Of a stretch of DNA of 64,000 nucleotides, positions 50,907 to 54,124 are shown piece after piece. Location of the stretch: the NCBI RefSeq assembly GCF_988242995.1, contig NZ_OZ547043.1; one strand, 5' to 3'. A model generated the notes under the pieces. That model worked only from the letters and a program-made list of their open reading frames with translations, ran no database searches and was not told the origin of the DNA. A program made the position numbers and the translations under genes. Numbering within the stretch: position 1 is the stretch's first letter; the number at the start of each line of letters is the position of its first letter.

Positions 50907-51020
50907 ACAGTCTGCCAGGGAAATGCCTGATAACATTACGTTAACCAACTGAAAACATGACACAAACACCTCATGCTCCTCCTGTTTCTCTTGCGTGACC
51001 GCCTTGCAATCAATAGAATA

Positions 51021-51062
51021 AAACGATCGATAAAACAGGTATCGATCGTTACTATCGATCGT
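51021..51062 (+). promoter_or_regulatory. Antigen 43 phase-variation switch: three GATC Dam sites in the presumed OxyR-binding region
   Basis: GATC at 51024, 51043 and 51056 within aacGATCgataaaacaggtatcGATCgttactatcGATCg, about 220 bp upstream of the agn43 start. Confidence 0.6.
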
Positions 51063-51277
51063 TTATAGTGGTTAATGGTCTGCGAAAAGGCAGCTGAATC
51101 TCTTCATCATGCAGAACGGAATTGCACACAACGGACTGATACTTCTCTGGCGGATGAGAGAGGGGAAGCATTTATGCCCGGGAAAAACCACTTTATCTGA
51201 CCATGCTGTTTTGTACCTGCCGGTATCCACATTTGTGGGTACCGGCTTTTTTATTCACCCTCTGTAAGGAAAAGCTG

Positions 51278-54124
51278 ATGAAACGACATCTGAACACCAG
51301 CTACAGGCTGGTATGGAATCACATTACGGGCACCCTGGTGGTGGCCTCCGAACTGGCCCGCTCACGGGGAAAACGCGCCGGTGTGGCGGTTGCGCTGTCT
51401 CTTGCTGCTGTCACATCAGTCCCGGCACTGGCTGCTGACAAGGTTGTACAGGCGGGAGAAACCGTGAACGATGGAACACTGACAAATCATGACAACCAGA
51501 TTGTCTTCGGTACGGCCAACGGAATGACCATCAGTACCGGTCTGGAGTATGGGCCGGATAACGAGGCCAATACCGGCGGACAATGGATACAAAATGGCGG
51601 TATCGCCAACAACACTACTGTCACCGGTGGTGGTCTTCAGAGAGTGAATGCCGGAGGAAGCGTTTCAGACACGGTTATCAGTGCCGGAGGCGGACAGAGC
51701 CTTCAGGGGCAGGCAGTGAACACCACTCTGAACGGCGGTGAGCAGTGGGTACATGAAGGCGGGATTGCAACGGGTACCGTCATTAATGAGAAGGGCTGGC
51801 AGGCCGTCAAATCCGGCGCAATGGCAACCGACACGGTTGTGAATACCGGCGCGGAAGGGGGACCGGATGCAGAAAATGGTGATACCGGGCAGTTTGTTCG
51901 CGGAAATGCCGTACGTACCACTATCAATGAAAATGGTCGTCAGATTGTGGCTGCTGAAGGAACAGCAAATACCACTGTGGTTTATGCCGGCGGCGACCAG
52001 ACGGTACACGGGCATGCGCTGGATACCACACTGAATGGCGGTTACCAGTATGTGCACAACGGAGGCACAGCCTCTGACACGGTTGTAAACAGTGACGGCT
52101 GGCAGATTGTCAAGGAAGGTGGTCTGGCGGATTTCACCACCGTTAACCAGAAAGGCAAACTGCAGGTGAACGCCGGTGGTACAGCCACGAATGTCACCCT
52201 GAAGCAGGGAGGCGCACTGGTCACCAGTACGGCGGCAACCGTCACCGGCAGCAACCGTCTGGGCAATTTCACTGTGGAAAACGGTAATGCTGACGGTGTT
52301 GTTCTGGAGTCCGGTGGTCGCCTGGATGTACTGGAGGGCCATTCAGCCTGGAAAACACTGGTGGATGACGGCGGAACCCTGGCAGTGTCTGCCGGTGGTA
52401 AGGCAACAGATGTCACCATGACATCCGGTAGTGCCCTGATTGCAGACAGTGGTGCCACTGTTGAGGGGACCAATGCCAGCGGTAAGTTCAGTATTGATGG
52501 CACATCCGGTCAGGCCAGCGGACTGCTGCTGGAAAATGGCGGCAGCTTTACGGTTAATGCCGGAGGACTGGCCAGCAACACCACTGTCGGACATCGTGGA
52601 ACACTGACGCTGGCTGCCGGGGGAAGTCTGAGTGGCAGAACACAGCTCAGTAAAGGTGCCAGCATGGTACTGAATGGCGATGTGGTCAGTACCGGCGATA
52701 TTGTTAACGCAGGGGAGATTCGCTTTGATAATCAGACGACACCGGATGCCGCGCTGAGCCGTGCTGTTGCAAAAGGCGGCTCCCCGGTAACGTTCCATAA
52801 ACTGACCACCAGTAACCTCACCGGTCAGGGTGGCACCATCAATATGCGTGTTCGCCTTGATGGCAGCAATACCTCTGACCAGCTGGTGATTAATGGTGGT
52901 CAGGCAACCGGCAAAACCTGGCTTGCGTTTACAAATGTCGGAAACAGTAACCTCGGGGTGGCAACCTCCGGACAGGGTATCCGGGTTGTGGATGCACAGA
53001 ATGGCGCCACCACAGAAGAAGGTGCGTTTGCCCTGAGTCGCCCGCTTCAGGCCGGCGCCTTTAACTACACCCTGAACCGTGACAGCGATGAAGACTGGTA
53101 CCTGCGCAGTGAAAATGCTTATCGTGCTGAAGTCCCCCTGTATACATCCATGCTGACACAGGCAATGGACTATGACCGGATTCTGGCAGGCTCCCGCAGC
53201 CATCAGACCGGTGTAAACGGTGAAAATAACAGCGTCCGTCTCAGCATTCAGGGCGGTCATCTCGGTCACGATAACAACGGCGGTATTGCCCGTGGAGCCA
53301 CGCCGGAAAGCAGCGGCAGCTATGGCTTCGTCCGTCTGGAGGGTGACCTGCTCAGAACAGAGGTTGCCGGTATGTCTCTGACGACAGGGGTGCATGGTGC
53401 CGCAGGCCATTCTTCCGTTGATGTTAAGGATGATGACGGTTCCCGCGCCGGCACGGTCCGGGATGATGCCGGCAGCCTGGGCGGATACCTGAATCTGACA
53501 CACACGTCCTCCGGCCTGTGGGCTGACATTGTGGCACAGGGAACCCGCCACAGCATGAAAGCGTCATCGGACAATAACGACTTCCGCGCCCGCGGCTGGG
53601 GCTGGCTGGGCTCACTGGAAACCGGTCTGCCCTTCAGTATCACTGACAACCTGATGCTGGAGCCACAACTGCAGTATACCTGGCAGGGACTTTCCCTGGA
53701 TGACGGCCAGGATAACGCCGGTTATGTGAAGTTCGGGCATGGCAGTGCACAACATGTGCGTGCCGGTTTCCGTCTGGGCAGCCACAACGATATGAGCTTT
53801 GGTGAAGGCACCTCATCCCGTGACACCCTGCGCGACAGTGCAAAACACCGTGTGCGTGAACTGCCGGTGAACTGGTGGGTACAGCCTTCTGTTATCCGCA
53901 CCTTCAGTTCCCGGGGTGACATGAGCATGGGGACAGCCGCCGCCGGCAGTAACATGACGTTCTCACCGTCCCGGAATGGCACGTCACTGGACCTGCAGGC
54001 CGGACTGGAAGCCCGTGTCCGGGAAAATATCACCCTGGGCGTTCAGGCCGGTTATGCCCACAGTGTCAGCGGCAGCAGCGCTGAAGGTTATAACGGTCAG
54101 GCCACGCTGAATGTGACCTTCTGA
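51278..54124 (+). CDS. flu: Antigen 43 autotransporter adhesin (short 948-aa variant)
   Basis: Starts MKRHLNTSYRLVWNHITGTLVVASELARSRGKR (extended autotransporter signal); beta-helical passenger repeats; C-terminal beta-barrel ending ...GQATLNVTF. Confidence 0.93.
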   Translation: MKRHLNTSYRLVWNHITGTLVVASELARSRGKRAGVAVALSLAAVTSVPALAADKVVQAGETVNDGTLTNHDNQIVFGTANGMTISTGLEYGPDNEANTGGQWIQNGGIANNTTVTGGGLQRVNAGGSVSDTVISAGGGQSLQGQAVNTTLNGGEQWVHEGGIATGTVINEKGWQAVKSGAMATDTVVNTGAEGGPDAENGDTGQFVRGNAVRTTINENGRQIVAAEGTANTTVVYAGGDQTVHGHALDTTLNGGYQYVHNGGTASDTVVNSDGWQIVKEGGLADFTTVNQKGKLQVNAGGTATNVTLKQGGALVTSTAATVTGSNRLGNFTVENGNADGVVLESGGRLDVLEGHSAWKTLVDDGGTLAVSAGGKATDVTMTSGSALIADSGATVEGTNASGKFSIDGTSGQASGLLLENGGSFTVNAGGLASNTTVGHRGTLTLAAGGSLSGRTQLSKGASMVLNGDVVSTGDIVNAGEIRFDNQTTPDAALSRAVAKGGSPVTFHKLTTSNLTGQGGTINMRVRLDGSNTSDQLVINGGQATGKTWLAFTNVGNSNLGVATSGQGIRVVDAQNGATTEEGAFALSRPLQAGAFNYTLNRDSDEDWYLRSENAYRAEVPLYTSMLTQAMDYDRILAGSRSHQTGVNGENNSVRLSIQGGHLGHDNNGGIARGATPESSGSYGFVRLEGDLLRTEVAGMSLTTGVHGAAGHSSVDVKDDDGSRAGTVRDDAGSLGGYLNLTHTSSGLWADIVAQGTRHSMKASSDNNDFRARGWGWLGSLETGLPFSITDNLMLEPQLQYTWQGLSLDDGQDNAGYVKFGHGSAQHVRAGFRLGSHNDMSFGEGTSSRDTLRDSAKHRVRELPVNWWVQPSVIRTFSSRGDMSMGTAAAGSNMTFSPSRNGTSLDLQAGLEARVRENITLGVQAGYAHSVSGSSAEGYNGQATLNVTF

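Follow-up and report, generated by a model that had tools for sequence, protein, structure and literature searches.

The 64,000-nucleotide stretch of contig NZ_OZ547043.1 (RefSeq assembly GCF_988242995.1) analyzed here, which we call the window, carries an intact agn43 gene (flu/cah-type; 51278–54124, + strand) that encodes a 948-residue Ag43/Cah autotransporter adhesin. Its promoter, the geometry of three upstream GATC sites, two OxyR dimer-type sites, and the leader are conserved, and its reading frame is intact. Based upon these features, this agn43 copy is likely to be phase-variable by competition between Dam and OxyR. Such a switch predicts that methylation of the GATC sites abolishes OxyR binding, that the ON and OFF states are heritable, that dam mutants are locked OFF, and that oxyR mutants are locked ON. 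A first-pass annotation of the same DNA had called the gene probably phase-variable. Its observation was confirmed and its interpretation was supported, although the call is still one from sequence, as was the same inference published for this allele family (PMC2808357).

Promoter, GATC sites, and putative OxyR operator

The agn43 promoter (50991–51019, + strand) was assigned by homology and consists of a –35-like TTGCGT (50991–50996), a 17-nt spacer, and a TAGAAT –10 element (51014–51019). In anchored and MAFFT alignments, it matched the K-12 agn43 promoter (TTGTCC-17-TAGAAT) position for position. The TTG of the –35 element and the entire –10 element were identical across seven alleles, as was the –10 element together with AAAACGATC. 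An invariant segment, AATAGAATAAAACGATC, which includes the –10 TAGAAT and the first GATC, lies directly upstream, with the TTG-containing –35 element 17 nt before the –10 element.

Three Dam targets, GATC-I (51025–51028), GATC-II (51044–51047), and GATC-III (51057–51060), lie at the K-12 spacing of 19 and 13 bp just 3' of the –10 element and start site, in a 36-bp tract (51025–51060). The first-pass annotation found this tract but numbered the sites 51024, 51043, and 51056, one base low, at the C of each CGATC. Three GATCs within 36 bp are unremarkable by themselves, as the window has three such clusters of ≤36 bp and ~0.9 would be expected under uniform placement (P of at least one = 0.58). 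What is specific is the 19/13 spacing with K-12-like flanks. This spacing occurs once in the window, is the same in K-12 (positions 3318, 3337, and 3350 of our comparison locus L002), and is kept in 10 of 11 other agn43/cah copies compared, namely K-12 flu, CFT073 agn43a and agn43b, O157:H7 cah, JJ1887 cah, and the copies of strains U1, PRO_A, H52, EC17GD31, and NCCP 13905. The exception is OkiPb01715 cah, in which a 13-bp deletion leaves two GATCs, the one case of GATC loss among the sampled records. Both allele groups of Ag43 have been described as having three GATCs with similar spacing (PMC2808357). An ungapped alignment anchored on GATC-I and a seven-sequence alignment placed no indel between the window and K-12 operators. 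A pairwise MAFFT alignment of the spacer with K-12 was rejected, as it introduced a 13-nt gap and put GATC-II and GATC-III out of register.

The OkiPb01715 deletion (L008, NZ_AP042695.1, ~3500–3540) removed 13 bp between direct repeats, ATCGATCGTTTAT, and left GATCs at –239 and –220 before an intact 949-residue gene. This record ranked lowest among the best 40 of 3293 records matching a probe for the window operator, and its allele may represent a switch that has been altered or locked in nature. In the window, the 51022–51061 DNA and the 5' end of the leader could form two mutually exclusive hairpins. One would pair GATC-I with GATC-II (CGATCGATA...TATCGATCG) in a perfect stem of 9–10 bp, which has one mismatch in K-12; the alternative GATC-II/GATC-III hairpin is the stem of the Rfam consensus.

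Consensus scoring identified an operator (51013–51059) composed of two OxyR dimer-type sites with centers 32 bp apart. Site 1, ATAGAATAAAACGAT (51013–51027), covers the –10 element and GATC-I, and site 2, ATCGTTnnnATCGAT (also given as ATCGTTACTATCGAT; 51045–51059), covers GATC-II and GATC-III. Each site matches ATAGnTnnnAnCTAT at 8 of 10 positions, two sites scoring 8/10 were seen in every allele compared, and each GATC overlaps a CTAT/ATAG-type recognition element. The consensus positions of both sites were unchanged in the seven alleles, and the operator types diverge between the sites, where a variable segment spans 51029–51043. Scored as a pair with a 17-nt spacer, the sites reach 16/20, the single best value in the 64-kb window (the runner-up, 14, occurs once), and both operator types attain 16/20 in this extended arrangement. 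A 32-bp spacing is called canonical for reduced OxyR in work on the OxyR/Dam switch of opvAB (PMC4856963). By consensus evidence, OxyR dimer-type sites thus lie over the GATCs at a usable spacing. The first-pass annotation had staked its reading on an OxyR consensus in alignment with K-12; in the K-12 register the score is 10/20, which speaks against the reading, but the dimer pair at 16/20 speaks for it. The window operator appears to be functionally conserved, with the variable segment probably in a turn of the helix that faces away from reduced OxyR.

In the mechanism that we favor, a sigma-70 promoter has a –10 element and first 40 transcribed bases that would double as a Dam/OxyR epigenetic switch. 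The promoter, the GATCs at 19/13 spacing, and the two OxyR-type dimer sites are present and are conserved with alleles in which switching has been studied. A reduced OxyR tetramer bound to 51013–51027 and 51045–51059 would occlude RNA polymerase and shield the GATCs from Dam, producing the OFF state. If Dam methylated the GATCs after replication but before OxyR rebound, then OxyR would be excluded and a heritable ON state would result. By homology, transcription should start at ~51025 and proceed through an isrC-type leader of ~250 nt to a conserved terminator hairpin, where termination would release an IsrC-like small RNA and read-through would produce an agn43-yeeR-irmA mRNA, probably ending at a second hairpin at 57317. 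Also by homology, the protein should follow the type Va export route (ESPR signal, β-helix passenger, autochaperone, and β-barrel) and, judging from the UTI89 protein, would self-associate head to tail and support moderate autoaggregation.

How common is this operator? We probed 5426 complete genomes. A 68-bp probe for the window-type operator matched 4769 places in 3291 of them, O157:H7 and ST131 included, and a K-12-type probe matched 1330 places in 1240 genomes, a count that is too low because CFT073-like variants share no 28-mer with the probe (megablast). The K-12 operator is the minority form, and the window type is commoner.

The agn43 coding sequence itself contains no GATC, compared to a mean of 6.5 in synonymous-codon shuffles, none of which (0 of 1000) lacked GATC; TCGA was also absent (4.0 expected). 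Nine of 11 alleles counted have no GATC in the coding sequence (the window, L002, L004, L006, L007, and L008–L010 among our loci), and the exceptions are CFT073 agn43b, with 2 compared to ~10.5 expected, and NCCP 13905, with 1. The upstream yeeP-like gene is also GATC-free, and the operator triplet therefore constitutes the sole GATCs in 4.9 kb (49290–54159), none other being found between 49289 and 54160. Downstream, yeeR has 19 GATCs (7.5 per kb) and irmA has 3. Other GATC-free stretches in the genomic island measure 5.1 kb (57405–62533) and 3.3 kb (42792–46079), and the longest gap in the core part of the window is ~1.4 kb. Selection may have kept GATC out of agn43 so that SeqA, or Dam acting processively from flanking sites, does not disturb the three-GATC switch.

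Leader RNA and alternative readings

The 371-bp spacer between yeeP and agn43 (50907–51277), which the first-pass annotation delimited correctly, contains an isrC/IS102-type leader RNA region in the agn43 5' untranslated region (51023–51259, + strand). That annotation could not confirm an isrC counterpart here, and the model scan it proposed finds one. Rfam family RF00124 (IS102, the family of K-12 isrC) matched with 74.6 bits (gathering score 46; E = 1.3e-11) over the whole model (positions 1–206 of 206). Elsewhere, short-type leaders scored 68–77 bits and long-type leaders scored 237–260 bits; the window score is far below the latter because the central part of the leader differs. Its 5' operator, 3' hairpin, Shine-Dalgarno sequence, and first codons are conserved, but its middle is a different sequence, ~31 nt longer than in K-12, such that 253 nt separate GATC-I from the ATG, compared to 222 nt in K-12. 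Weak Rfam matches to mir-2290 and sR17, which are eukaryotic/archaeal families, fell far below their thresholds and were taken as chance.

The leader ends in an intrinsic-terminator-like hairpin and T run (51219–51252, + strand), detected by scanning. The hairpin (51219–51246) has a 12-bp stem with 8 GC pairs, is near-invariant in seven alleles, falls within the Rfam consensus structure, and is present in both the minimum-free-energy and centroid folds. By analogy with the K-12 isrC annotation (L002 3318–3512), which starts at the G of GATC-I and extends to the T run, a short RNA of ~51025–51252 is predicted, and the conserved hairpin at 51219–51252 is the one feature that suggests accumulation of a discrete small RNA. 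IsrC has been described as the terminated agn43 leader, with antitermination producing flu mRNA (PMC5389530, citing Wallecha 2014), and a role for the hairpin as attenuator or antitermination point is taken from the same source.

Several observations weigh against phase variation of the window gene. The –35 element matches consensus at just 3 of 6 positions, and a generic consensus promoter scan of 50850–51330 listed no promoter, an outcome explained by this weak –35 element. The 15 bases from GATC-I to GATC-II are GATAAAACAGGTATC in the window but AATATCTATTTTATC in K-12, with CFT073 similar to K-12. In the K-12 register, the contiguous OxyR consensus (ATAGnTnnnAnCTAT-N7-ATAGnTnnnAnCTAT) is matched at 10/20 positions in the window, a chance-level score found hundreds of times in the window, compared to 14/20 in K-12 and in CFT073 agn43a and agn43b. 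Hence, the window operator lacks the contiguous tetramer consensus in this register. The two-dimer-site reading comes from our own consensus scoring and not from a footprint. A literature search found no experiment on OxyR binding, differential methylation, or switching for the window operator type, and methylome papers mentioned Ag43 in general terms only. Finally, OxyR derepression data exist for CFT073, 83972, and EC958 (PMC4807369); among these strains, the operators compared here are the two from CFT073 agn43 genes, and both are K-12-like. Transcription in EC958 starts at 228 bp (PMC4807369), which fits a long-type leader, as GATC-I of CFT073 agn43a is at –228. These data are therefore not cleanly transferable to the window operator, and we rejected the EC958 and CFT073 oxyR-mutant results as direct evidence for it. 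JJ1887, the ST131 relative, carries a short cah allele but lacks yeeR-irmA.

Could the switch be degenerate? If replacement of the element between GATC-I and GATC-II left OxyR too weak to compete with Dam, then the sites would be methylated constitutively and agn43 would be expressed, or would be under some other control, without ON/OFF variation. The lower contiguous consensus match, 10/20 compared to 14/20 in K-12 and both CFT073 genes, fits this idea, as do an upstream dimer element that scores 2/10 in the K-12 register compared to 6/10 in K-12-type operators and a literature search that turned up no experiments with operators of this type. However, thousands of copies retain the GATC triplet at precisely this spacing, which would be difficult to account for if the sites had no function; two invariant 8/10 dimer sites, 32 bp apart, cover all three GATCs; other contiguous registers that share one dimer site, at 51013 and 51045, reach 13/20, the top contiguous score in the window; and specialists took the same arrangement to indicate phase variation (PMC2808357). 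We consider a degenerate switch unlikely. A related idea is that the switch works but with altered logic, in that only the extended arrangement for reduced OxyR is well kept and oxidized OxyR binds poorly. The scores are compatible with this model, as the extended arrangement is 16/20 in both operator types and the contiguous one, in the same register, drops from 14/20 in the K-12 type to 10/20 in the window, and so are the spacing rules for reduced OxyR (PMC4856963). The model depends purely on consensus counting, however; oxidized OxyR may still bind in the 13/20 registers at 51013 and 51045, and agn43, gtr, and opvAB have each been reported to behave independently of oxidation state (PMC2909390, PMC4856963), as has K-12 Ag43 phase variation in particular (PMC2909390). 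We regard altered logic as quite unlikely here. The corresponding general claim, that the contiguous four-element OxyR site is broken in the majority operator, which would be repressed by reduced OxyR alone and biased toward ON by oxidative stress, also seems improbable to us; if true, it would contradict the rule, derived from K-12, that phase variation of Ag43 is indifferent to the oxidation state of OxyR.

The most distant alternative is that 51023–51259 is chiefly a gene for an independent, trans-acting small RNA (isrC), with the GATC cluster serving its own control. Rfam classes RF00124 as a gene/sRNA, K-12 isrC is annotated as a separate noncoding RNA, and a strong terminator hairpin is found upstream of the agn43 start. 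Nevertheless, the 25-nt gap between hairpin and ATG contains no evident separate promoter for agn43, and the literature treats IsrC as a terminated agn43 leader subject to antitermination (PMC5389530). Moreover, both ends of the RNA are conserved between allele types but the middle is poorly conserved, a pattern that suits an operator plus attenuator better than a base-pairing small RNA. This alternative strikes us as very unlikely. Dam/OxyR phase variation of agn43 remains the reading that we prefer.

Protein, allele family, and known relatives

The agn43 frame is uninterrupted from the ATG at 51278 to the stop codon at 54122–54124 (949 codons, 948 residues). The mechanical open reading frame opens 25 codons upstream, at 51203, but RefSeq places the start on identical DNA at the equivalent of 51278, and a Shine-Dalgarno AAGGA lies 7 nt 5' of this ATG. 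The product comprises an ESPR signal peptide (residues 1–52; 51278–51433), a passenger plus autochaperone (residues 53–613; 51434–53116), and a linker plus β-barrel translocator (residues 614–948; 53117–54121), all on the + strand. Pfam matches to ESPR (6–52), six AIDA repeats, AC_1 (479–599), and Autotransporter (673–924) make up the full type Va architecture. The Ag43/Cah equivalog NF033177 (auto_Ag43) of NCBIfam matched with 1992.5 bits (cut-off 1200), and residues 1–948 aligned to profile positions 1–948 of 948; the curated profile itself therefore has the length of the window protein. The reading frame, Pfam, and this full-length match bear out the 948-residue agn43 homologue of the first-pass annotation. 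Together with RefSeq and Protein Data Bank (PDB) matches, they make the identity of the locus as an intact Ag43/Cah autotransporter gene essentially certain. Many complete E. coli chromosomes, of human, dog, cat, and water origin, carry the 3218-bp region of 50907–54124 at 100% identity; the gene is always annotated in them as "Ag43/Cah family autotransporter adhesin," and the RefSeq protein WP_021542765.1 is identical to the window product. A pseudogene or frameshift was excluded by the intact frame and this identical protein. The locus is thus already known: its exact allele is in RefSeq, a near-identical protein has been crystallized, its subfamily has a name, and the three GATCs have been remarked on in print.

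Compared to the 1039-residue Flu of K-12, the window protein is 81–82% identical overall, and the differences are regional. Identity is 85% in the signal peptide (1–52), 89% for residues 53–330, 57% for 331–482, 60% for 483–613, and 94% for 614–948, and three stretches of Flu, of 72, 8, and 13 residues, have no counterpart in the window protein, in which they would follow residues 471, 487, and 506. These values agree with the first-pass description of matching ends and a distal passenger that is shortened and diverged. The label "short Ag43 variant" holds in the sense that the protein is shorter than in K-12 but not in the sense of a peculiar shortened copy, as it is the common SF-II/Cah-type form. 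Ag43 allele groups differ across the C-terminus of α43 and the N-terminus of β43, and the short group has a smaller passenger (PMC2808357). In the subfamily scheme, the bottom-lobe subdomain is BL1 (143 residues) in SF-I and BL2 (90 residues) in SF-II, passengers measure ~500 residues in SF-I and ~430 residues in SF-II, and SF-II has an EJ2-BL2 module (PMC10058404). The window protein has the shorter, divergent α43/β43 junction region of SF-II (57–60% identity to K-12 at 331–613), and this region is 94–95% identical to O157 Cah. A 123-nt probe for the short-form junction matched 4012 places in 2958 of the 5426 genomes, and a probe within the K-12-specific 72-residue block matched 3051 places in 2397 genomes. 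The 948-residue form therefore belongs to the common SF-II (Cah/UTI89-like) family and is not unusual. A K-12-like N-terminal subdomain with a short distal module (SL1a + EJ2-BL2) would place the protein in class C6 of the six-class scheme of PMC10058404. Class naming is unsettled, as UTI89 Ag43, which is near-identical to the window protein, is C4 under the older scheme.

Sampled short alleles were paired with a promoter and leader of the window type; most long alleles had those of the K-12/CFT073 type. A strict link between short coding sequence and window-type operator was ruled out by strain EC17GD31 and by the excess of operator places (4769) over junction places (4012). EC17GD31 (L010, NZ_CP031293.1, 3480–6892) combines the window-type promoter, operator, and 253-nt leader with a 1040-residue agn43, a mixture that shows that regulatory and coding modules reassort by recombination. 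Strain GF4 (L011, NZ_CP172217.1, 3400–6200) has a decayed copy, in contrast to the intact window copy: its Ag43/Cah pseudogene contains an internal stop and is separated from the three-GATC region by an IS66-family element.

The closest relative of known structure is Ag43 of UTI89 (locus c1139; PDB 7KO9; assigned to class C4 by Vo et al. 2022, PMC8993888). Window residues 52–613 align to it without gaps at ~98% identity (13 substitutions in 562 residues), and the boundaries of the crystallized construct, 53–613, fit the window protein. The start of the mature passenger (ADKVVQAGETVNDGT...) matches the EDL933 protein (7KOH, the next-best PDB match), not the UTI89 protein. UTI89 Ag43 autoaggregates, but at a lower rate than Ag43a or the protein of EDL933 (PMC8993888). 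Given the ~98% identity, the window protein would be expected to form the same L-shaped β-helix, to self-associate, and to autoaggregate moderately and more slowly.

Cah of enterohemorrhagic E. coli O157:H7 (949 residues; 7KOH is the EDL933 structure) shares the short family and the operator and leader type, including GATAAAACAGGTATC. It is 90% identical to the window protein overall and 94–98% identical from residue 331 on, but just 73% identical in the N-terminal passenger subdomain (53–330), and its downstream neighbor is a dynamin-family gene rather than yeeR-irmA. K-12 flu, in the CP4-44 prophage, shares the flanking order of yeeP GTPase gene, leader, agn43, and yeeR, as well as the –10 element, the 19/13 GATCs, the terminator hairpin, the Shine-Dalgarno sequence, the first codons, and a 94% identical β-domain. 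It differs in protein length (1039 compared to 948 residues), in the segment between GATC-I and GATC-II, and in the middle of the leader. In addition, the window has intact yeeP, yeeR, and irmA; in K-12, yeeP is a pseudogene, yeeR is truncated, and irmA is missing. The K-12 flu gene is next to tmaR in CP4-44, whereas the window agn43 is in a pheV island.

Predicted operon, genomic island, and biological meaning

An intact gene for a yeeP-like GTPase (50034–50906) lies upstream of agn43. Downstream on the + strand are a full-length yeeR-like gene (54245–56761; 838 residues), annotated as a RefSeq coding sequence in near-identical loci L001 and L003, and irmA (56837–57292; 151 residues), an IrmA family protein gene annotated in the same loci and described previously (PMC4807369). 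The yeeR-like product had no Pfam or NCBIfam match. A terminator-like hairpin and T run follow irmA (57317–57354, + strand, by hairpin scan); this hairpin (57317–57345) begins 25 nt past the irmA stop codon and has a 12-bp stem with 7 GC pairs. It was the only + strand terminator-like site in 54050–57500, with none before the end of irmA. Thus, agn43, yeeR, and irmA lie in order on one strand with no insertion or internal terminator-like site, and the hairpin at 57317 is a candidate for the 3' end of their transcript, which could not be mapped by 3' RACE in earlier work (PMC4807369). In uropathogenic E. coli, agn43-yeeR-irmA is an OxyR-repressed operon, with co-transcription and repression demonstrated in EC958 and CFT073 (PMC4807369). 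The window shares the gene order and intergenic spacing of that operon (Moriel et al. 2016, PMC4807369), and co-transcription and OxyR repression of its three genes are predicted by analogy.

The agn43 copy resides in a pheV genomic island and not in a CP4-44-like position. A tRNA-Phe gene (38647–38722), which adjoins speC-yqgA in related genomes and is thus pheV, marks the insertion point. It is followed by a P4-type integrase gene (38920–40185; 421 residues) and an IS66-family element on the – strand (tnpC, 41015–42400; tnpB, 42450–42797; tnpA, 42794–43195). CFT073 agn43a shares the pheV-island location, but the CFT073 operon in that island is split by IS66 elements and has a long allele and a K-12-like operator, whereas the window operon is uninterrupted and has a short allele. 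After irmA, the gene order is DUF905, DUF932, antirestriction, RadC/JAB, YeeT, and a CbeA/CbtA-type module. In this region, a 353-residue open reading frame (59899–60960, + strand) with no NCBIfam match spans two genes annotated in related genomes, one for a 214-residue hypothetical protein or "antitoxin of TA stability system" (frameshifted in L003) and then one for a YeeU/CbeA-type antitoxin; the frame may represent a fusion or may simply happen to be open.

Our results have little significance beyond annotation, and the by-products are mildly new: a commoner operator that lacks the contiguous OxyR consensus yet retains two dimer sites at the spacing of reduced OxyR, and avoidance of GATC in agn43. 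The K-12 operator of the textbooks is in the minority. The commoner operator, which 3291 of the 5426 complete genomes carry, differs from it in a segment usually shown as part of the OxyR site; our literature search found no direct test of this commoner operator. An intact agn43 probably enables the strain to turn an adhesin for aggregation and biofilm formation on and off. The yeeR gene and the secreted cytokine-receptor mimic IrmA would switch along with agn43, which is relevant to the persistence of extraintestinal E. coli.

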